Under the pieces are notes generated by a model, which was not told where the DNA came from, did no database searches, and worked only from the letters and a program-made list of their open reading frames with translations. A stretch of DNA of 53,676 nt from a virus (lineage: Duplodnaviria; Caudoviricetes). The position numbers and the translations under genes were made by a program. Within the stretch, counting starts at the first letter, position 1; the number at the start of each line of letters is the position of its first letter. This document shows positions 9,161-47,306 of this stretch, piece after piece. The stretch is taken from positions 1-53,676 of IMG/VR virus record IMGVR_UViG_3300030101_001806; one strand, written 5' to 3'.

Positions 9161-9390
9161 TGGATATAAAATTAGCACACATGTTAATAAATAACTTGAC
9201 ATCAATCCCTGATGGTCACGACGATCTTCACTTTTATTTAAAAACTTTAAAAGGAGAGGTTCCAGAAGATCACAAGCCATCAAAGATTGAATGTCTTGAG
9301 CATCTTGAATTAAAAGTCAATGAGCAAATAAGACAATGGGAGTCCATAAGAACTCGAATAAAAAATTATCACAGTGGGATAAATAAATGA
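9160..9390 (+). CDS. Hypothetical protein
   Basis: TAATG coupling; starts MDIKLAH. Confidence 0.65.
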   Translation: MDIKLAHMLINNLTSIPDGHDDLHFYLKTLKGEVPEDHKPSKIECLEHLELKVNEQIRQWESIRTRIKNYHSGINK

Positions 9391-10313
9391 TAATTTGGGG
9401 AGCAGGACTCGCAGGTCTTCTAGCTGCAAATATGTTTAGGAAGTGGTCACCTGTAGTATATGAAAAGCAGGATTCACTTCCTAATAATCACAACGCATTA
9501 TTAAGATTTAGAACAAATCAAGTTGGCACTGCTTGTGCCATACCTTTTAAGAAAGTAAAGGTAACAAAAGCAATCAAATATGATAAGCAAATAATAACAG
9601 AACCAAATTTATTTTTTAGCAATATGTATTCTCAAAAGGTTACAGACTCTGTCCTCAGCAGATCCATAGATAATTTGGACCCAGTTGAAAGATATATATC
9701 CCCACAGAATTTAATAGAACAAATGTCTATTGGCATTGATATAGATTATAATGTTGAAGCAAACACAGAGTCATTATTTTATAGAAAAGAAAAAAGTTAT
9801 CCTGTAATATCTACATTGCCAATGCCACTAGCGATGAAGATGATTGATTGGGAGAACTTTCCTAATTTTAGAACTAACACAATCTGGTCACAAAGTTGTG
9901 AGATTGGAGATCCAGAAGTTAATATAAATCAAACTATTTATTATCCAGATCCATTGGTGCCTCAATATAGGATATCTATAGTTGGCAACATAGTAATAGC
10001 AGAATACAGATCTCAACCACCAAACACAGGTCAGATGATCCATGAGGCACTGTATGATGATTTTGGATTTAGAGTCAAAAGACTAATCAATCTGTCAACC
10101 AAAGAACAGAAGTATGGAAAGATTATGCCTATTGACGACAAGATAAGAAAAGACTTTATTTATACACTCACTGAGAAGTATAATATATATTCTGTCGGAA
10201 GATTTGCAACTTGGCGACAGTTGTTGTTAGATGATGTTGTTAATGATATCAGTGTTATTGAAAGATTAATTAATGGCAACTCTAATTATAATTTTAGAAA
10301 GGAAATGATATGA
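9387..10313 (+). CDS. FAD-dependent oxidoreductase, UDP-galactopyranose mutase/PPO-like fold
   Basis: N-terminal GAGLAG...VYEK dinucleotide-binding motif; C-terminal IYSVGRFATW..LLDDVV resembles the UGM GRxxxY/W motif. Confidence 0.7.
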   Translation: MIIWGAGLAGLLAANMFRKWSPVVYEKQDSLPNNHNALLRFRTNQVGTACAIPFKKVKVTKAIKYDKQIITEPNLFFSNMYSQKVTDSVLSRSIDNLDPVERYISPQNLIEQMSIGIDIDYNVEANTESLFYRKEKSYPVISTLPMPLAMKMIDWENFPNFRTNTIWSQSCEIGDPEVNINQTIYYPDPLVPQYRISIVGNIVIAEYRSQPPNTGQMIHEALYDDFGFRVKRLINLSTKEQKYGKIMPIDDKIRKDFIYTLTEKYNIYSVGRFATWRQLLLDDVVNDISVIERLINGNSNYNFRKEMI

Positions 10314-10969
10314 AAGTAAAATTAATTAATGCGACTAGTGATGCAGTAGATTTATTGCTGTTCACTAAGAACACCAGACTCATGAATGATGAAGGTGCTT
10401 ATGATAAAATAAAGGCATGGCCACAAGAGCAAAAAGATGAGCATCTTGATTACATGCTCAACACCATTAAATCTTCTTGGGAATTTATTGATTACACATT
10501 TGATATTAGAGATGTGTCAAGAGGATTCACTCATCAGTTTGTTAGAACCAGACAAGGATCTTATGCTCAACAATCTCAGAGAACTGTAGACATGACAGGT
10601 TTTGAATATTACACTCCAGAAAGAATTATTGCAGATGGCATGGCAAAAGAGATCTATGATGGCACAATGGAAATAATCAACCAAAGATATCAACAGTTGA
10701 TAACAGCAGGTGTTCCTGCAGAAGATGCCAGAGGAATATTGCCAACTAATATTTATACAAATATAGTTGCAAAATTTAATCTTAGAACTTTACATGAGAT
10801 GGCAAAGAGTAGATTGAGTCCAAGAGCACAAGGTGAATATCGTGAAGTGTTTACAATGATGGTTGCTGAAGTTGTAAAAGAACATCCATGGGCAAAACCA
10901 TTCTTAACACCTAAAGAGTGGGCAGCACCATCAATGGCCAGATCTCTCAATCCAGAGGTAAAGTCATGA
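10310..10969 (+). CDS. thyX: Divergent ThyX (flavin-dependent thymidylate synthase) homolog
   Basis: VSRGFTHQFVRTRQGSYAQQSQR, EDARGILP, NLRTL..SRL..AQGEYR; the RHR motif reads RTR. Confidence 0.85.
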   Translation: MKVKLINATSDAVDLLLFTKNTRLMNDEGAYDKIKAWPQEQKDEHLDYMLNTIKSSWEFIDYTFDIRDVSRGFTHQFVRTRQGSYAQQSQRTVDMTGFEYYTPERIIADGMAKEIYDGTMEIINQRYQQLITAGVPAEDARGILPTNIYTNIVAKFNLRTLHEMAKSRLSPRAQGEYREVFTMMVAEVVKEHPWAKPFLTPKEWAAPSMARSLNPEVKS

Positions 10970-11484
10970 ACATATTTTATTTAGATAGAGATCCAGGAAC
11001 TGCTGCAGCAATGCATTGTGATAAGCATGTTGTTAAAATGATATTAGAAACAGCACAAATGCTTTCCACTGCTCACAGAGTTTTAGATGGTGATGAGCCA
11101 GCAGATGAAGTTGGTCTGTATAAAAGAGCATTTGAAAATCATCCATGTTCTATATGGTTGAGGGATTGTGTGACTAATTATATGTGGGGATATAATCTTT
11201 TCACTTCACTATTAAAAGAGTACACAAGAAGATATAAAAAATTTCATGCCTCAAATAGATTATCAAATCTTTTAAGTTATGAACCAGATAACATTGCTAA
11301 GTTTAAATGGCAATGTAATATGGATGCACCAATGTCTTGGTTGGGAGTTACAGAACCACCACAATGCATGCCAGATAAATATAAATGCGAAGATCCTGTT
11401 CAAGCATACAGGAATTATTATCTTGGTGAAAAAATGTATATGGCTGTCTGGACAGAAAGAGAGGTGCCACAATGGATACAATAG
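10966..11484 (+). CDS. Pyrimidine-dimer DNA glycosylase-like protein (DenV/Pyr_excise-related)
   Basis: MNIFYLD...HCDKHVVKMILETAQMLST...NHPC..W...PPQCMPD.YK..DPVQAYRNYY; start at ATGA overlap 10966. Confidence 0.75.
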   Translation: MNIFYLDRDPGTAAAMHCDKHVVKMILETAQMLSTAHRVLDGDEPADEVGLYKRAFENHPCSIWLRDCVTNYMWGYNLFTSLLKEYTRRYKKFHASNRLSNLLSYEPDNIAKFKWQCNMDAPMSWLGVTEPPQCMPDKYKCEDPVQAYRNYYLGEKMYMAVWTEREVPQWIQ

Positions 11485-11936
11485 AAACAGATAATAATCT
11501 CTTTAGAAAGAAGATAATCATAACAGATCTAGATGGCACAATATCAGATTGCACTCATAGGTTAAAGCATTATAAAAAGAATAATTATTTTAAATTTAAT
11601 GAACTTGGTTCTGAAGATTTACCTATAACACCAATCGTCAATATTTTAAGGAACTGTAAAAGTCAAGACAATGATGTTGTTGTTATCACTGCTCGTGATG
11701 AATACCACAGACCAGCAACTCTTGACTGGCTGAAAAGATATGACATTCCTTGTGACAATTTATTGATGAGACCATCTGATGATAACAGGTATGATGATGA
11801 AGTCAAACTAGATCTCTTTGAAAGAAATTATGAAAAGGAAGATGTTTGGTTTGTTCTTGAAGATAGACAGATGGTAGTCAATATGTGGCGAAGTTTAGGT
11901 CTCACTTGTTTACAACCAGCTCCAGGAGATTTTTAA
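11472..11936 (+). CDS. HAD-family phosphatase (like the T4 Pnkp 3'-phosphatase domain)
   Basis: DLDGTI, ITAR, LLMRP..D.R.D..VK, EDRQMVVNMWRSLGLTCLQ. Confidence 0.85.
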   Translation: MDTIETDNNLFRKKIIITDLDGTISDCTHRLKHYKKNNYFKFNELGSEDLPITPIVNILRNCKSQDNDVVVITARDEYHRPATLDWLKRYDIPCDNLLMRPSDDNRYDDEVKLDLFERNYEKEDVWFVLEDRQMVVNMWRSLGLTCLQPAPGDF

Positions 11937-12118
11937 TGGGAATAAGAATAATAAATAATGACATTGAAATAGATGGCGAAAAGGTTGCTCGCATATTTGA
12001 TGTTCGACCAACTTTAAAAGATCGACTAATTCAAATTATCGAAAATGCAGATGACCATGAAGAAGAGATCCAAAAAGCATATGAGAGAGGAAAGGAGGAT
12101 GCCCAATACGATGAATAA
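11936..12118 (+). CDS. Hypothetical small protein
   Basis: TAATG coupling; 60 aa, MGIRIINN... Confidence 0.6.
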   Translation: MGIRIINNDIEIDGEKVARIFDVRPTLKDRLIQIIENADDHEEEIQKAYERGKEDAQYDE

Positions 12119-12410
12119 AAGTCCAGCGAAAATTTTAGAGGAGATGGCTGACACTTTCCGTGAGAGAAACAAGGTCTATGGAGATAACTGGAAAGTTGTT
12201 GGAGAAGTCATGACGTCATTATTTCCGAATGGTGTTGTTCTTAAAACTGAAGAAGATTATAATATATGGCATCTGTTTGAACTTCTTGTTGTTAAGATAA
12301 CAAGGTTTGCTAACAGTGAATTGAAGCATCAAGACTCAATTCATGACACTGCAGTTTATGCAGCAATGATTGAGGGAATGATTACTAAGTTAAAGAAAGG
12401 AAAAAATTAA
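12099..12410 (+). CDS. Nmad1/DUF6378-like all-alpha protein; putative nucleotide pyrophosphohydrolase
   Basis: ERNKVYGDNW...LLVVKITR...HQDSIHDTAVYAAM; alternative start at 12111. Confidence 0.6.
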   Translation: MPNTMNKSPAKILEEMADTFRERNKVYGDNWKVVGEVMTSLFPNGVVLKTEEDYNIWHLFELLVVKITRFANSELKHQDSIHDTAVYAAMIEGMITKLKKGKN

Positions 12411-13084
12411 TGAGTAATATTTTAATAACTGGCACTGGCAAAGGTCTTGGCAAAGCCATGAAAGAAGAATTAGAAAAACAAGGTCATTCAATTATAGATT
12501 ATAATTTAGAAGATGGGAATGATGTAAGAACAACCAAAGATTTAATAATGTGGGAAAACATCGATGTGTTAATAAATAATGCTGGTGTTAATCTTATAGA
12601 TTGGTTGGAGAACTTTGAAGAAGATATGTGGGACAAAGTTATGGATACAAATGCCAAAGGTATTTATATGATGACCAAAGCATGTCTGCCAAGTCTAATT
12701 AGGAGAAAAGGAACGATCCTAAATATAGTCAGCAATGCAGCCCACATGCCAATGACTTGTTCTCTTGCTTACAATGCATCCAAAGGTGCAGCCCATATAA
12801 TGACTTTGCAGTTGGCTCGTGAATTAACAAAAAAGCATGGCATAACAGTTTTTGGAATAGCACCAAACAAATTAAAAGGAACTGGAATGAGTGATGCAAT
12901 AGATGACCAAGTTGTAAAAACTCGTGGCTGGACAAAAGAATATGCTCAACAATATCAAATCAATGGATTATTGACAGGTGAAGAAACACCACCACAAAGG
13001 TTAGCAGAGTTTGTTGCATTTCTACTTCAATCAAAAGAACACCACAAATATTTAACTGGTTGTATTTTACCATATGGAGCATAA
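12410..13084 (+). CDS. Classical short-chain dehydrogenase/reductase (SDR)
   Basis: ITGTGKGLG, INNAG, catalytic Ser (IVSNA) and YNASK. Confidence 0.92.
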   Translation: MSNILITGTGKGLGKAMKEELEKQGHSIIDYNLEDGNDVRTTKDLIMWENIDVLINNAGVNLIDWLENFEEDMWDKVMDTNAKGIYMMTKACLPSLIRRKGTILNIVSNAAHMPMTCSLAYNASKGAAHIMTLQLARELTKKHGITVFGIAPNKLKGTGMSDAIDDQVVKTRGWTKEYAQQYQINGLLTGEETPPQRLAEFVAFLLQSKEHHKYLTGCILPYGA

Positions 13085-13085
13085 T

Positions 13086-13565
13086 ATGAAATTTAAAATA
13101 GAACAGATAGCGATCCGTCCAAAACATCCTATTCGTGCAAAACAATTACTTTCTGAGATAGGTGCAGTAGATTGGTCAGAAGACCATGTTGTTGCCACTG
13201 GTAAAGTTTTTGGTCATGAGGGAACTAATGAAGCAGACTTGTCTTTTAACTATGAAATATTTGATGGCAAAGAGTTTGAGATTTTAAATTATACCAAAGG
13301 AAGAAATTGGATTGATTCAACGCATCCTGAGGGAAATGTAGTCAGCCATCTTGGCATGCATTGTTCAGCAGAAGAACTTGAAAAATGGAAAGAATTTTTT
13401 CACCAGAGAGCAATTAAAATTTCTCAAGAGGTTTTTACAGACTCACACACTAATCCTGTCATAGCAGGAAAAAGGTCATATAATTATGTTATCTTTGACA
13501 CAAGATCAATACTTGGTGTGGATCTTAAATTTATTGTTAGGATTAATAAAGATGATAGTCTTTGA
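13086..13565 (+). CDS. VOC/glyoxalase-fold protein (epimerase- or isomerase-like)
   Basis: IEQIAI...EFEILNY...VSHLGMH...YVIFDTRSILGVDLKFI pattern resembles methylmalonyl-CoA-epimerase-like VOC proteins. Confidence 0.55.
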   Translation: MKFKIEQIAIRPKHPIRAKQLLSEIGAVDWSEDHVVATGKVFGHEGTNEADLSFNYEIFDGKEFEILNYTKGRNWIDSTHPEGNVVSHLGMHCSAEELEKWKEFFHQRAIKISQEVFTDSHTNPVIAGKRSYNYVIFDTRSILGVDLKFIVRINKDDSL

Positions 13566-25920: not shown

Positions 25921-26358
25921 TTATCCCTCTATATATATAGAACCAATTCTCAAGAAACCTTGTCTTTCGTAAAATTTATCTTTACGGATGACATCTCCTG
26001 AGAAAACATGTCCTAATCTTAGTTGTAGTTTAACTTCTTTAACAATTTTTACAAAATGATTTAATATTTTTTTAGCAATGTCACTTTTTCTATAATCTTT
26101 CATAACATAATACCAAAGATCTCCAATGTAGTCCTCATCAGACCACCAATCTTTGTTTTTCTGGCCAGATATTGAACCTATTATTTTTTCACTATCTACA
26201 GCGACAAGTATTATTCCTGTGTGCAACAATTCATTTATTTTGTGAACAAGTTTTCCAGTATTTATTTTTGGAATATCAACCACAGTTTCCTCGTGCATCA
26301 TTTGTAACAGAAATATTATTCCTGATATATCGCCAACATTGGCTCTTCTTATTATCAT
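25921..26358 (-). CDS. GNAT-family acetyltransferase in the tail module
   Basis: IRRANVGD...YVMKDYRKS.IA...FYERQGF. Confidence 0.8.
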   Translation of the reverse strand: MIIRRANVGDISGIIFLLQMMHEETVVDIPKINTGKLVHKINELLHTGIILVAVDSEKIIGSISGQKNKDWWSDEDYIGDLWYYVMKDYRKSDIAKKILNHFVKIVKEVKLQLRLGHVFSGDVIRKDKFYERQGFLRIGSIYIEG

Positions 26359-43817: not shown

Positions 43818-44216
43818 TTAAATGTATGCAGTTACTTCTACTCCCTCAGGCAAGATTGCTGTAATCTCGTCATCATTCAGAAGTAAAAATCTAACATTTT
43901 GAACAACTATCTTTTGACCAGCATATTTTCCATATGTAACTTGGTCACCAATTTTTGGTAATCTAGTCATTCTCCATGACTGACCTGTATCTCTATCTCG
44001 ATATGCCAGTTCACCTATTGCACAAACTGTTCCATGTGCAGTAAGTATTTGCTCATTTTCTTTGACTTTATCAGGCAAAAGGATGCCACCTTTTGTCTTT
44101 GCTTTTATCTCATTTGGTTGAATTAAAATTTTCCAGTTCATTGGTATTGGTAACTGGTGTGAACCAACAGTTGCTTTGCTCAGACTGTCGGTGTATATTG
44201 CATGCTGATGAGACAT
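43818..44216 (-). CDS. groES: GroES-like co-chaperonin
   Basis: PMNWKILI...KTKGGILLPD...GDQVTYGKYAG...LLNDDEITAI. Confidence 0.88.
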   Translation of the reverse strand: MSHQHAIYTDSLSKATVGSHQLPIPMNWKILIQPNEIKAKTKGGILLPDKVKENEQILTAHGTVCAIGELAYRDRDTGQSWRMTRLPKIGDQVTYGKYAGQKIVVQNVRFLLLNDDEITAILPEGVEVTAYI

Positions 44217-46210: not shown

Positions 46211-46392
46211 TACACTTGACCACTACTGAGTTCTCTGGCCAGTATCTGTAATGTTTCCTTAAATCCTTTGTCTAATGTTTTTGCTAACTTCGCAAACTTC
46301 TTTGGACTTAATTCGTCTGTAGATATTTTTTTAGATTTTAAAAATTTTTTTGCTGCTCTTATCTCTGCATTCGCAACTTTTTTAACTGACAT
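46210..46392 (-). CDS. Small basic protein
   Basis: 60 aa, Lys-rich. Confidence 0.65.
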   Translation of the reverse strand: MSVKKVANAEIRAAKKFLKSKKISTDELSPKKFAKLAKTLDKGFKETLQILARELSSGQV

Positions 46393-47047
46393 TATTTTGC
46401 TCCGAAGTTAAACTTATATTTGCTGAAAAAGATCTTCTTTCACCTTCACCAAAGAAAGGATAAACAGTATGAAACAAATGTGATGGAAATATAAAAAGAT
46501 CTCCAACGACAGGCATGCAACATAAATTTCCTGGAGTGACAATAGAACTAGAGCCATAAATAAAATCAATGTAACCTTCTGTTGCGTATTTTTCTTTGGT
46601 GTTTCTTGTGTTCTTTTCACTTATTCCCTCTGGCACTTTTAAATATGCAACACAAGAAAATGTACCATTGGTGTGAATGTGAGTTGGATTGTAATCTGCC
46701 TCAAAAGATCTTACAAACCAAGAACTGTGAATGATTATCTGCTGTGGTATTGCATCATTTCCTCTTGTTCCTTTTTCTTTCATGAACTCATCATGCAAAC
46801 CTCTTGTAAGATTGCCAAGAAATTTTCCAAAAGGATTCATCTCTGGTGCGTTCATATCACATCTTAGTTCTTCTGCAACATGACCAACCAACTCTGCTGA
46901 TTCATCTAGTTCTTTTCTTTTATTATCATCTTGCAATATTTTATCACATTGCTCATTTAAAGAATTTACAAAATCCATTGGCATTTTTGCACGAAGTATT
47001 CGTGGTCCAAATGGTCTTAATATATCAACTTGAAGTTCTTGATTCAT
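46382..47047 (-). CDS. 2OG-Fe(II) oxygenase-like protein (TIGR02466-type)
   Basis: YNPTHIH...SCVAYLKVP...GDLFIFPS.L.HTVYPF...ERRSFSAN; start MNQELQ at 47047. Confidence 0.8.
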   Translation of the reverse strand: MNQELQVDILRPFGPRILRAKMPMDFVNSLNEQCDKILQDDNKRKELDESAELVGHVAEELRCDMNAPEMNPFGKFLGNLTRGLHDEFMKEKGTRGNDAIPQQIIIHSSWFVRSFEADYNPTHIHTNGTFSCVAYLKVPEGISEKNTRNTKEKYATEGYIDFIYGSSSIVTPGNLCCMPVVGDLFIFPSHLFHTVYPFFGEGERRSFSANISLTSEQNNVS

Positions 47048-47048
47048 A

Positions 47049-47306
47049 CTACCATGCCTTACAAGACCAATATCTTGCTTTTGTTTTTGGTCCAGGATTA
47101 TCACAGTTGTGCCTTGATCTAAAATTGCTCCTGCGTTTTGGCTGATTCTTTTTTATTTTCATGTTAGGATCTCCGAATGTAACTTTTTTTACTTTACCAC
47201 CATCCATAACATAAACGACAGACTTCTTTTTACCATAAGATGGTTCGCCTTTACCAATGCGTCTTGGCTTGTTAAGTGTAACCTTTCTGCCACGATATTC
47301 AGCCAT
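47049..47306 (-). CDS. Small basic protein
   Basis: KVTFGDPNM...RSNFRSRHNC...ARYWSCKAW. Confidence 0.75.
   Translation of the reverse strand: MAEYRGRKVTLNKPRRIGKGEPSYGKKKSVVYVMDGGKVKKVTFGDPNMKIKKNQPKRRSNFRSRHNCDNPGPKTKARYWSCKAW

Follow-up and report, generated by a model that had tools for sequence, protein, structure and literature searches.

Introduction

ThyX, the flavin-dependent thymidylate synthase (FDTS), is a textbook enzyme and a drug target, and H53, S88, and Y91 are regarded as strictly conserved elements of its mechanism. Here we describe a ThyX-like gene in which H53 and Y91 are replaced, carried by a tailed marine virus (Duplodnaviria; Caudoviricetes) known from the IMG/VR record IMGVR_UViG_3300030101_001806. 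We refer to the whole stretch of DNA analyzed, all 53,676 nucleotides of that record, as the window. It is a complete 53.7-kb virus by the CheckV estimate, and it carries genes for a portal, a terminase, a DnaE-type polymerase with a separate exonuclease, a primase, and helicases.

The closest described system is canonical ThyX, as represented by TM0449 of Thermotoga maritima and Rv2754c of Mycobacterium tuberculosis. According to excerpts of a study on T. maritima ThyX, the stacking partner of H53 is the folate pterin when the complex is oxidized and the flavin when the enzyme is reduced, and hydrogen bonds to Y91 and N85 hold H53 in place. The same excerpts state that flavin is oxidized about 1000-fold more slowly once Y91 is mutated, and they describe S88 and Y91 as strictly conserved (PMC11940539). 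Excerpts of a second study describe the direct use of formaldehyde by ThyX via a flavin N5 carbinolamine and propose an assisting role for S88 and Y91 (PMC8316439). The window's protein shares with the canonical enzyme the fold, the contacts to flavin adenine dinucleotide (FAD) and deoxyuridine monophosphate (dUMP), and hidden Markov model scores above the cut-offs. Unlike canonical ThyX, however, the clade to which it belongs is without H53, H59, Y91, N85, the aromatic residue of the folate loop, and His163, and the His of its RHR motif is variable; the clade is also virus-only and always adjoins a flavoprotein resembling UDP-galactopyranose mutase (UGM) or renalase.

Two further systems bear on the role that we propose. 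A dUMP hydroxymethylase of the ThyA family is the entry enzyme of the known hypermodifications derived from 5-hydroxymethyldeoxyuridine (5-hmdU), as stated in excerpts of a published account (PMC8989533). The ThyX-like protein may play the same role, i.e., the functionalization of C5 of dUMP before replication, and relatives of the phages concerned carry hypermodified thymidine. However, the hydroxymethylase has an unrelated fold and uses a Cys nucleophile with folate instead of the flavin N5 relay of ThyX, and no ThyA gene was found in the module-bearing phages described below. In MnmE/MnmG, which use flavin and folate to make 5-carboxymethylaminomethyluridine (cmnm5U) on tRNA, a flavin-N5-methylene is captured by a nucleophile and not reduced to a methyl group, an analogy drawn in the same excerpts (PMC8989533). 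These enzymes have another fold, an RNA substrate, and no homology to the ThyX-like protein, and the analogy is mechanistic only.

Results

An apparently remodeled active site

The ThyX-like open reading frame (ORF) and the two altered segments of its product, located by translation, are as follows.

10310 to 10969, plus strand: ThyX-like gene, 219 amino acids; putative flavin-dependent dUMP C5 carbon transferase of a phage-only subfamily without H53 and Y91
10463 to 10486, plus strand: TIKSSWEF segment, residues 52 to 59, replacing canonical G-H53-x-[ST]-P-x-E58-H59
10532 to 10588, plus strand: HQFVRTRQGSYAQQSQRTV segment, residues 75 to 93, with R79, R81, S89, and R91 kept, H79 replaced by T80, N85 by A86, and Y91 by T92

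The product is a member of the Thy1/ThyX family with the ThyX fold. It matches Pfam Thy1 (PF02511) over residues 5 to 194 with an E value of 2.3e-40 and NCBIfam TIGR02170 thyX with 104.1 bits, the cut-off being 87.9. Its AlphaFold2 model (pLDDT 90.8) retrieved the ThyX chains of T. maritima, M. tuberculosis, and Thermus thermophilus in Foldseek with TMq values of 0.68 to 0.76, the maximum being that to the T. maritima FDTS.

The protein was aligned to T. maritima ThyX chains by phmmer, and the chain index minus 12 was used as native numbering; this offset, like the native T. maritima residue numbers, is our assumption for a tagged construct. H51-G-H53-E-T-P-F-E58-H59 of T. maritima aligns to N51-T-I53-K-S-S-W-E58-F59 of the query, R78-H79-R80 to R79-T80-R81, S88 to S89, R90 to R91, and Y91 to T92, and identical residues stand opposite T. 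maritima E58, Q75, R78, R80, S83, S88, R90, R147, R165, and R174. An earlier note on this DNA, made from the sequence alone, had read the two segments as listed, with a His-to-Thr and a Tyr-to-Thr change in the signature and with the motif Ser, the Arg following it, and two downstream motifs intact. The two stretches of DNA translate exactly so, both changes were borne out by the alignment (H79 to T80 and Y91 to T92), and S89, R91, EDARGILP (residues 138 to 145), and SRLSPRAQGE (residues 167 to 176) are indeed intact. Its list of altered residues was correct as given but incomplete, since N85 is replaced as well (A86). A change of E86 to Gln was also considered and rejected as a meaningful difference, for the M. 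tuberculosis ThyX chains read SQLSQRY there.

The ThyX motif is written RHR-x7-S. The protein departs from it at the His only, its R79-T80-R81-x7-S89 having both Arg and the Ser, with Thr in place of His. The residue differences are not noise, because I53 and T92 are shared by 120/120 close homologs (at least 73% identical); T80 is present in 116 of these and Asn in the other 4.

We compared 76 rows of the clade defined below with 31 "canonical" rows, which were picked by His at position 53 and consist of ORFs from prokaryote genomes plus the metagenomic representatives P0261 and P0263. Fourteen positions (R23, E58, Q76, R79, R81, S84, R91, Y127, R141, N157, R159, R168, Q174, and E176) are at least 80% conserved in both groups, and they include the known FAD and dUMP contacts. 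The dUMP-binding Arg/Gln set of Q76, R79, R81, R91, R141, and R168 (Q75, R78, R80, R90, R147, and R174 in T. maritima numbering) is kept, each member in 92 to 99% of the 76 clade rows, and the FAD contacts E58, S84, N157, and R159 are kept in both groups, the corresponding T. maritima residues that we take to contact FAD being E58, S83, N163, and R165.

Other positions separate the two groups. Residues found only in the canonical rows are Tyr at position 26 (94%; the folate loop by alignment), L45, H53 (100% by definition), H59 (74%), Tyr at position 92 (94%, 29/31), His at position 163 (94%), L167, and I177, and those found only in the clade are K20, T22, T52, I53, W57, F59, A86, and G142. 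I53 occurs in 63 and F59 in 73 of the 76 clade rows, against the group-defining His53 in 31/31 canonical rows. The His53 that stacks on folate and flavin is thus not kept in the query, nor are its hydrogen-bond partners Y91 and N85 (I53, T92, and A86, respectively). The flavin si-face of canonical ThyX is where methylenetetrahydrofolate and NADPH (reduced nicotinamide adenine dinucleotide phosphate) bind and where S88 and Y91 promote methylene transfer, and its residues are replaced clade-wide. The clade has therefore preserved the side of the site that binds the nucleotide and remade the side on which the carbon donor and the reductant are handled and the transfer takes place.

A virus-only clade defined by joint losses

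A search of 1.84 billion cluster representatives yielded 4185 matches at E values up to 1e-3 and 106 at up to 1e-30. Among the 120 listed representatives of at least 190 amino acids, position 80 is Thr in 78, His in 25, Asn in 7, Ser in 7, and another residue in three; position 92 is Val in 55, Thr in 20, Ile in 15, Ala in 12, and Tyr in only 3; and the S88 position is relaxed (Ser in 69, Thr in 28, and Ala in 21). A comparison set of 30 prokaryote ThyX ORFs came from samples of Actinomycetota, Pseudomonadota, and Cyanobacteriota (according to the titles of the seed metagenome-assembled genomes [MAGs]) and from the seed Gordonia MAG. All 30 have His53 and RHR, with Tyr at the Y91 position in 29 and Phe in 1.

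We built a maximum-likelihood tree from 107 rows: the query itself, 47 ORFs derived from loci, and 59 representatives from metagenomes. The representatives had been thinned by about half (every second one of 205 to 300 amino acids was kept, with 12 added back by hand), and three locus ORFs were left out, namely, the two-domain ThyX L103 and the poorly matching L121 and L123. The 74 rows without H53 and Y91, together with 2 rows that are without H53 and have Phe92, lie on one side of a branch with an SH-aLRT of 95, implying a single state change. Position 80 is Thr in 49 of these 74 rows, His in 11, Asn in 7, Ser in 4, and another residue in three, with 13 changes on the tree, and RHR forms branch first within the clade; in the canonical rows, it is His in 31/31 and Thr in 0/31. 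Because the tree shows one change for the pair, 13 at position 80, and RHR as the basal form, the loss of H53 and Y91 came first and the RHR His was relaxed later.

The earlier note had treated RTR as the signature of the altered enzyme and had raised the phylogeny of RTR-type proteins as a check. The RTR-type proteins do fall into a monophyletic clade and are not scattered among canonical enzymes, but the clade is not defined by RTR: given the 13 changes and the basal RHR forms, the signature itself did not hold up. RTR was also rejected as a marker of functional class, as position 80 varies among T, H, N, and S within the clade. The defining losses are instead those of H53, Y91, H59, the folate-loop aromatic residue, and His163, and the altered residues are a clade-wide trait under selection.

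Clade members were found on phage records and phage-like MAG contigs and nowhere else. We scanned 185,579 prokaryote species, one genome each, with patterns from a 10-sequence alignment (FTHQ[FL]VRTR, LPTN..) and obtained 11 loci, of which 10 were clade-type, all on MAG contigs, and 1 was canonical (Gordonia). Nine of the 10 clade-type MAG loci had enough flanking DNA, and all nine showed phage synteny. This count is a lower bound because the patterns are RTR-specific, and other spellings in cellular genomes could escape them. The closest relatives in the phage collection (39 to 50% identity) are from a Vibrio phage, Wifcevirus, a Serratia phage, and Pbunavirus; clade members are 33 to 82% identical to the window's protein, and close homologs are abundant in marine metagenomes (1845 matches, many from Tara and other metagenome sources).

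Thirteen of the ThyX-like representatives with 300 or more amino acids were scanned against Pfam. Ten had the Thy1 domain only, one had a weak sub-threshold match to Pam3_gp59, and two had inteins. The latter are the clade members P0187 (428 amino acids) and P0207 (637 amino acids), with Intein_splicing matches at E values of about 1e-12, and their inteins interrupt the protein at about query residue 75, immediately ahead of the HQxVR motif, where the nucleotide site is most conserved. Separately, tandem double Thy1 matches in frames of ~510 to 610 amino acids were seen in many genomes sampled around Gordonia, Dehalococcoidia, and Gastranaerophilales MAGs (G004, G011, G015, G019, and others); these score much lower than single-domain ThyX.

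A flavoprotein partner and a conserved module

The genes that surround the ThyX-like gene in the window are listed below.

9387 to 10313, plus strand: FAD-type Rossmann flavoprotein, 308 amino acids, GxGxxG at residues 5 to 10; constant partner, its stop overlapping the ThyX-like start by 4 nucleotides
10966 to 11484, plus strand: pyrimidine-dimer-glycosylase-like or DNA-binding protein, 172 amino acids from the ATG at 10966; variable member of the neighborhood
11472 to 11936, plus strand: HAD phosphatase of the PNKP-phosphatase type, 154 amino acids (Pfam HAD_PNKP, E value of 6.8e-30)
12045 to 12410, plus strand: DUF6378 domain protein, 121 amino acids as called (Pfam DUF6378, E value of 0.0017, below cut-off; PHROG 4889, E value of 2.3e-32)
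12410 to 13084, plus strand: short-chain dehydrogenase/reductase (SDR), FabG-like, 224 amino acids (Pfam adh_short, E value of 5.3e-34); optional sub-module
13074 to 13565, plus strand: VOC-like protein, 163 amino acids, related to phage proteins annotated as glyoxalase/dioxygenase

The partner flavoprotein matched no Pfam family at E values up to 0.01 and no NCBIfam family; it matched PHROG 4828 (function unknown) with an E value of 7e-68. Its AlphaFold2 model (pLDDT 84.8) retrieved UGMs, renalase, and amine-oxidase-type flavoproteins in Foldseek, with E values of about 1e-10 and TMq values of 0.5 to 0.67 (0.56 to 0.67 for the top matches, UGM and renalase), and in the ESM Atlas it lies close to unnamed viral clusters. 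It is like UGM and renalase in its two-domain FAD fold, and its size is close to that of bacterial renalase. However, the identity is 10 to 14%, its 308 amino acids compare with 359 to 510 in UGM chains, and renalase and amine-oxidase-type folds score alike. UGM uses its reduced flavin N5 as a nucleophile on sugar C1.

Neighborhoods were counted over IMG/VR loci, MAG contigs, and cultured phages, many of them closely related. A flavoprotein homolog lies upstream of the ThyX-like gene in 85/85 loci with at least 1100 nucleotides upstream; when the loci are collapsed at 70% ThyX identity into 22 clusters, it is present in 21, and the last has no upstream DNA. It occurs in 362 records of the phage collection, including 292 of Pseudomonas and 27 of Escherichia, the same two counts as for the ThyX-like gene, and Gordonia, Mycobacterium, Microbacterium, Halorubrum, and the other listed hosts of Thy1 phages are absent from its ten commonest genera.

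Downstream genes were counted in 67 loci with at least 3.5 kb of downstream DNA. The exonuclease was found in 65 of them, DUF6378 in 59, the HAD phosphatase in 54 (by tblastn), the SDR in 29, the Pyr_excise-like gene in 28, and the VOC-like gene in 27. The SDR and the VOC-like protein occur together in 35 loci and the SDR alone in 3, and the VOC-like protein never occurs alone. HAD-type and DUF6378 matches lie in one protein in Pbunavirus, Wifcevirus, Burkholderia phage WTB, and a Rhizobium phage, the HAD match in the last being marginal (Hydrolase_6, E value of 0.0027, 18.2 bits versus a cut-off of 27). This combined protein is enlarged to 474 amino acids in Serratia phage Hera and to 577 in WTB, with a middle region that is unassigned, and WTB has a further 167-amino-acid gene after the ThyX-like gene.

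The true start of the DUF6378 protein may be the ATG at 12099, since its ESM Atlas entry begins at residue 19. The window copy is 64% identical to those of Wifcevirus and Myosmarvirus. A DUF6378 profile of 18 sequences gave chance-level matches only against Protein Data Bank sequences (best E value of 0.029, POU domains), and the ESM Atlas returned viral clusters only, with no function. The VOC-like protein had no match among the PHROGs and is 52% identical (E value of 8e-61) to Wifcevirus Bas101_0046, which has a weak Glyoxalase_4 match (E value of 0.0043). Its ORF, between the SDR and exonuclease genes, was hidden in the longest-ORF call because the exonuclease frame is open from 13486, with its conserved part beginning near 13552. 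The product of 10966 to 11484 matched Pfam Pyr_excise with an E value of 1.2e-4 and 22.8 bits, just below the 23-bit cut-off, and PHROG 624 with an E value of 1.7e-55; next to a module that modifies nucleotides, a protein resembling a DNA glycosylase could serve in base exchange or base recognition. At the DNA level, the gene is 75 to 80% similar to genes in Pseudoalteromonas phage XG4 and Caulobacter phage Cr30.

The conserved module thus comprises the UGM/renalase-like flavoprotein, the ThyX-like protein, and the HAD phosphatase with DUF6378, often joined by the SDR with the VOC-like protein, and it is present in two cultured genera, Pbunavirus and Wifcevirus. None of the 14 ThyX-like representatives of at least 300 amino acids contained the flavoprotein or another module protein as a fusion. 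The trio of flavoprotein, ThyX-like protein, and HAD-DUF6378 was also found in the 206-kb T4-like Rhizobium phage, where small genes and a homing endonuclease separate its members. The 10-kb locus of that phage had no homolog of DnaE or of the exonuclease, which argues for a link beyond inherited gene order.

Elsewhere, the window encodes a GroES-like co-chaperonin (43818 to 44216, minus strand) and, placed among the tail genes, a GNAT acetyltransferase (25921 to 26358, minus strand).

Possible links to thymidine hypermodification

Excerpts of a 2025 bioRxiv preprint report that the DNA of Pbunavirus F8 resists five enzymes with TG-containing sites and that about a quarter of T in the virion DNAs of F8 and 14-1 is replaced, at TG, by new thymidine derivatives (362 and 390 Da), which its authors read as a tetrose sugar-alcohol derivative and a cyclized aldopentose derivative (PMC12191111). 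These excerpts name no biosynthetic genes, and they cite Pbunavirus as lacking the genes previously implicated in modification (PMC12191111). Wifcevirus has been reported as insensitive to nearly all tested restriction systems, without known protection. Our literature searches found no paper that connects ThyX or thymidylate synthase with Pbunavirus or hypermodification. By our arithmetic, 362 Da corresponds to 5-hmdU plus tetritol minus water, or to deoxyuridine (dU) reductively alkylated by an aldopentose, and 390 Da corresponds to 5-hmdU plus pentose minus water, or to dU C-linked to a hexose; mass alone cannot choose between O-linked 5-hmdU and C-linked dU derivatives.

F8 and 14-1, which carry different modifications, were compared gene by gene. 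In these phages, gp059 is the ThyX-like protein, gp065 the flavoprotein, and gp057 HAD-DUF6378; the Wifcevirus ortholog of the ThyX-like protein is Bas101_0049. The ThyX-like proteins are 93.8% identical and the flavoproteins 97.3%, and the flanking polymerase, exonuclease, and Dda helicase are 96 to 99% identical, versus 79.7% for HAD-DUF6378 and 78 to 82% for gp058, gp060, and gp061. The gp070 proteins are 56.5% identical (398 versus 434 amino acids), and gp066 aligns only over its C-terminal 121 residues; gp070 and gp066 belong to PHROGs 5310 and 4765, function unknown.

Genes for the described entry routes were sought in the module-bearing phages. ThyA (PF00303) was found in 0/10 genomes (the window and 9 others), and Thy1 was present as a single copy in 6/6 genomes searched. 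A post-replicative route via phage T-dioxygenases exists, according to excerpts of PMC13229309, and Tet_JBP (PF12851) had no match at E values up to 1 in the window, F8, Bas101, Hera, or Rhizobium phage RHph_TM2_3B (0/5). The window does encode a 2-oxoglutarate-Fe(II) oxygenase (46382 to 47104, minus strand), which belongs to PF13759 and not to Tet_JBP.

Protection of TG should spare the palindromic restriction sites containing it from their usual avoidance. We therefore compared the observed with the expected counts (O/E) of the 64 six-base palindromes, 16 TG-containing and 48 other, under a maximal-order Markov expectation.

F8 (positive control): TG-containing 0.96, other 0.73
Bas101 (Wifcevirus): TG-containing 0.98, other 0.74
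Hera (Myosmarvirus): TG-containing 0.87, other 0.70
WTB: TG-containing 0.88, other 0.72
PVA7 (Vibrio phage): TG-containing 1.01, other 0.80
G266 (IMG/VR relative): TG-containing 0.90, other 0.67
G267 (IMG/VR relative): TG-containing 0.95, other 0.76
Five phages without the module: TG-containing/other 0.59/0.43, 0.61/0.70, 0.60/0.58, 0.72/0.61, and 0.40/0.72

The TG class ranks first to third of the ten dinucleotide classes in F8, Bas101, Hera, WTB, PVA7, G266, and G267. Its O/E was 0.87 to 1.01 in 9/9 module genomes versus 0.40 to 0.72 in the five controls, and the ratio of TG to non-TG was at least 1.22 in 7/9 module genomes and 1/5 controls. As a sign of TG protection in the module phages, the test is suggestive only.

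In the window, the six-base palindromes that were strongly under-represented are those with AC/GT (O/E of 0.46 versus 0.93 for the rest; P = 0.009), the other classes being near expectation. This deficit hints at host restriction pressure on GTAC- or ACGT-type sites.

Discussion

We favor, tentatively and with somewhat less than even confidence, the reading that the ThyX-like protein is a flavin-N5 carbon transferase acting on C5 of dUMP, at the entry step of a thymidine-hypermodification route encoded by the module. In this scheme, N5 of the reduced FAD would still relay a carbon unit to C5 of dUMP, and the donor, the fate of the exocyclic-methylene intermediate (the second half-reaction), or both would be changed. 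The product would be a C5-functionalized dUMP rather than, or besides, thymidine monophosphate (dTMP), with 5-hydroxymethyl-dUMP formed by water capture and a sugar-bearing C5 substituent as the candidates. The enzyme would then be the nucleotide-level entry step of a pathway like that detected chemically in Pbunavirus DNA, with the flavoprotein, the phosphatase, and the redox enzymes handling the sugar/polyol part or keeping the flavin reduced. The earlier note had suggested an altered donor or a different pyrimidine. Since the altered residues lie on the folate/NADPH face, are clade-wide, and appear to be under selection, and the FAD and dUMP contacts are kept, a changed second half-reaction can fairly be proposed; a different pyrimidine is unlikely, because the uracil-reading Arg (R91) and the phosphate-binding Arg/Gln are conserved. 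The HAD phosphatase, the SDR, and the VOC-like protein, which a plain thymidylate synthase does not need, count in favor of this reading.

A more specific version is doubtful: the module of flavoprotein, ThyX-like protein, and HAD-DUF6378 would be the missing route to the sugar-bearing thymidines of Pbunavirus, and probably also serve Wifcevirus, Myosmarvirus, and many uncultured marine phages, with the ThyX variant coupling a non-folate carbonyl carbon to C5 of dUMP via the reduced-flavin N5. That carbon could be formaldehyde, followed by water capture to 5-hydroxymethyl-dUMP, or even C1 of an aldose.

Several points weigh against a hypermodification role. The main difficulty is that the Pbunavirus modification is TG-specific and leaves three quarters of T canonical, which points to a post-replicative step on DNA that a dUMP-level enzyme cannot explain alone. 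No 5-hydroxymethyluracil DNA kinase or glycosyltransferase was found among the 57 window ORFs scanned against the PHROGs, and our literature searches found no assay of any clade member. Gene order in phage replication modules is conservative, and so adjacency alone is weak evidence. The palindrome test also has its exceptions: the window shows no relief of TG palindromes (0.91 versus 0.89; ratio of 1.03), the Rhizobium phage shows no avoidance at all (0.97 versus 0.97; ratio of 1.00), in F8 and the window, avoidance of the two four-base TG palindromes is stronger than that of the others, and the control phiKMV, which is without the module, has a ratio of 1.37. Moreover, the controls were few and chosen by us, and the module genomes are partly related.

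Nearly as likely is that the protein is a divergent but ordinary flavin-dependent thymidylate synthase that converts dUMP to dTMP and boosts phage DNA synthesis. The loss of H53 and Y91 would be compensated by I53, W57, and F59, or the flavoprotein would reduce the flavin as part of a two-component synthase, and the other neighbors would be unrelated replication-module genes or a separate modification pathway. This reading remains strong: the protein exceeds both the Pfam and the NCBI thyX equivalog cut-offs, keeps all dUMP and FAD contacts, and is the sole thymidylate-synthase homolog in the phages searched (ThyA in 0/10, one Thy1 in 6/6), as a plain synthase would also be. The copy in the Rhizobium phage lies near genes for dUTPase and ribonucleotide reductase, basal clade members keep RHR, and Phe occurs naturally at the Y91 position of actinobacterial ThyX, i.e., in a Gordonia ThyX and in C. 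glutamicum chains, so that the site tolerates some change; the TG-specific modification would then probably be installed on DNA by other enzymes. What argues against a plain synthase is the joint loss of H53, Y91, the folate-loop aromatic residue, and His163 across all clade rows, together with Ala at the S88 position in 21/120 representatives; in T. maritima, such residues matter up to 1000-fold, according to the excerpts of PMC11940539. The clade was never found as a cell's own enzyme, and hence nothing shows that it can sustain the dTMP supply. In addition, the strict link to the flavoprotein and the HAD phosphatase is absent from the other listed Thy1-carrying phages, and the ThyA and Tet_JBP searches found no other candidate for C5 chemistry in Pbunavirus.

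It is improbable that the protein is a flavin-dependent methylase of another nucleotide, be it UMP, as for the nucleoside-antibiotic enzyme PolB, dCMP, or a polynucleotide uracil. The clade profile does match chain 4p5a (E value of 4.5e-14; named "Thymidylate synthase ThyX" in the table), which we take to be the UMP/dUMP methylase PolB, and the loop with S88 and Y91 is the most altered part. However, the profile matches the ThyX of M. tuberculosis, C. glutamicum, and T. maritima far more strongly (E values of 1e-25 to 1e-20), the near invariance of R91, which binds the uracil, and of the phosphate-binding R79, R81, and R141 fits a uracil mononucleotide, and the gene context is DNA replication. 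More improbable still is a catalytically crippled ThyX relic that the replication module retains for binding dUMP or FAD or for a regulatory or structural task, for although residues reported as critical for catalysis (Y91 and H53) are lost, the 14 ligand-contact positions stay at least 80% conserved in a clade only 33 to 82% identical to the window's protein and the new residues I53, W57, F59, and A86 are themselves conserved, which together argue for a working, remodeled site.

Whether as a plain synthase or as the C5 carbon transferase that we favor, the existence of a large, widespread viral branch without H53 and Y91 means either that the mechanism of ThyX tolerates more change than has been assumed or that its fold has been put to use in new C5 chemistry. 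Pbunaviruses are among the Pseudomonas aeruginosa phages most used in therapy, and the module offers a small set of candidate genes for their hypermodified thymidine, to which no genes are assigned. If the more specific version above is true, the ThyX-like protein would be the first flavin-dependent enzyme to hydroxymethylate or alkylate C5 of a DNA precursor, and thymidine hypermodification would have a second, independent origin. The candidate set also implies that such chemistry may be widespread among uncultured marine phages, in which close homologs abound.

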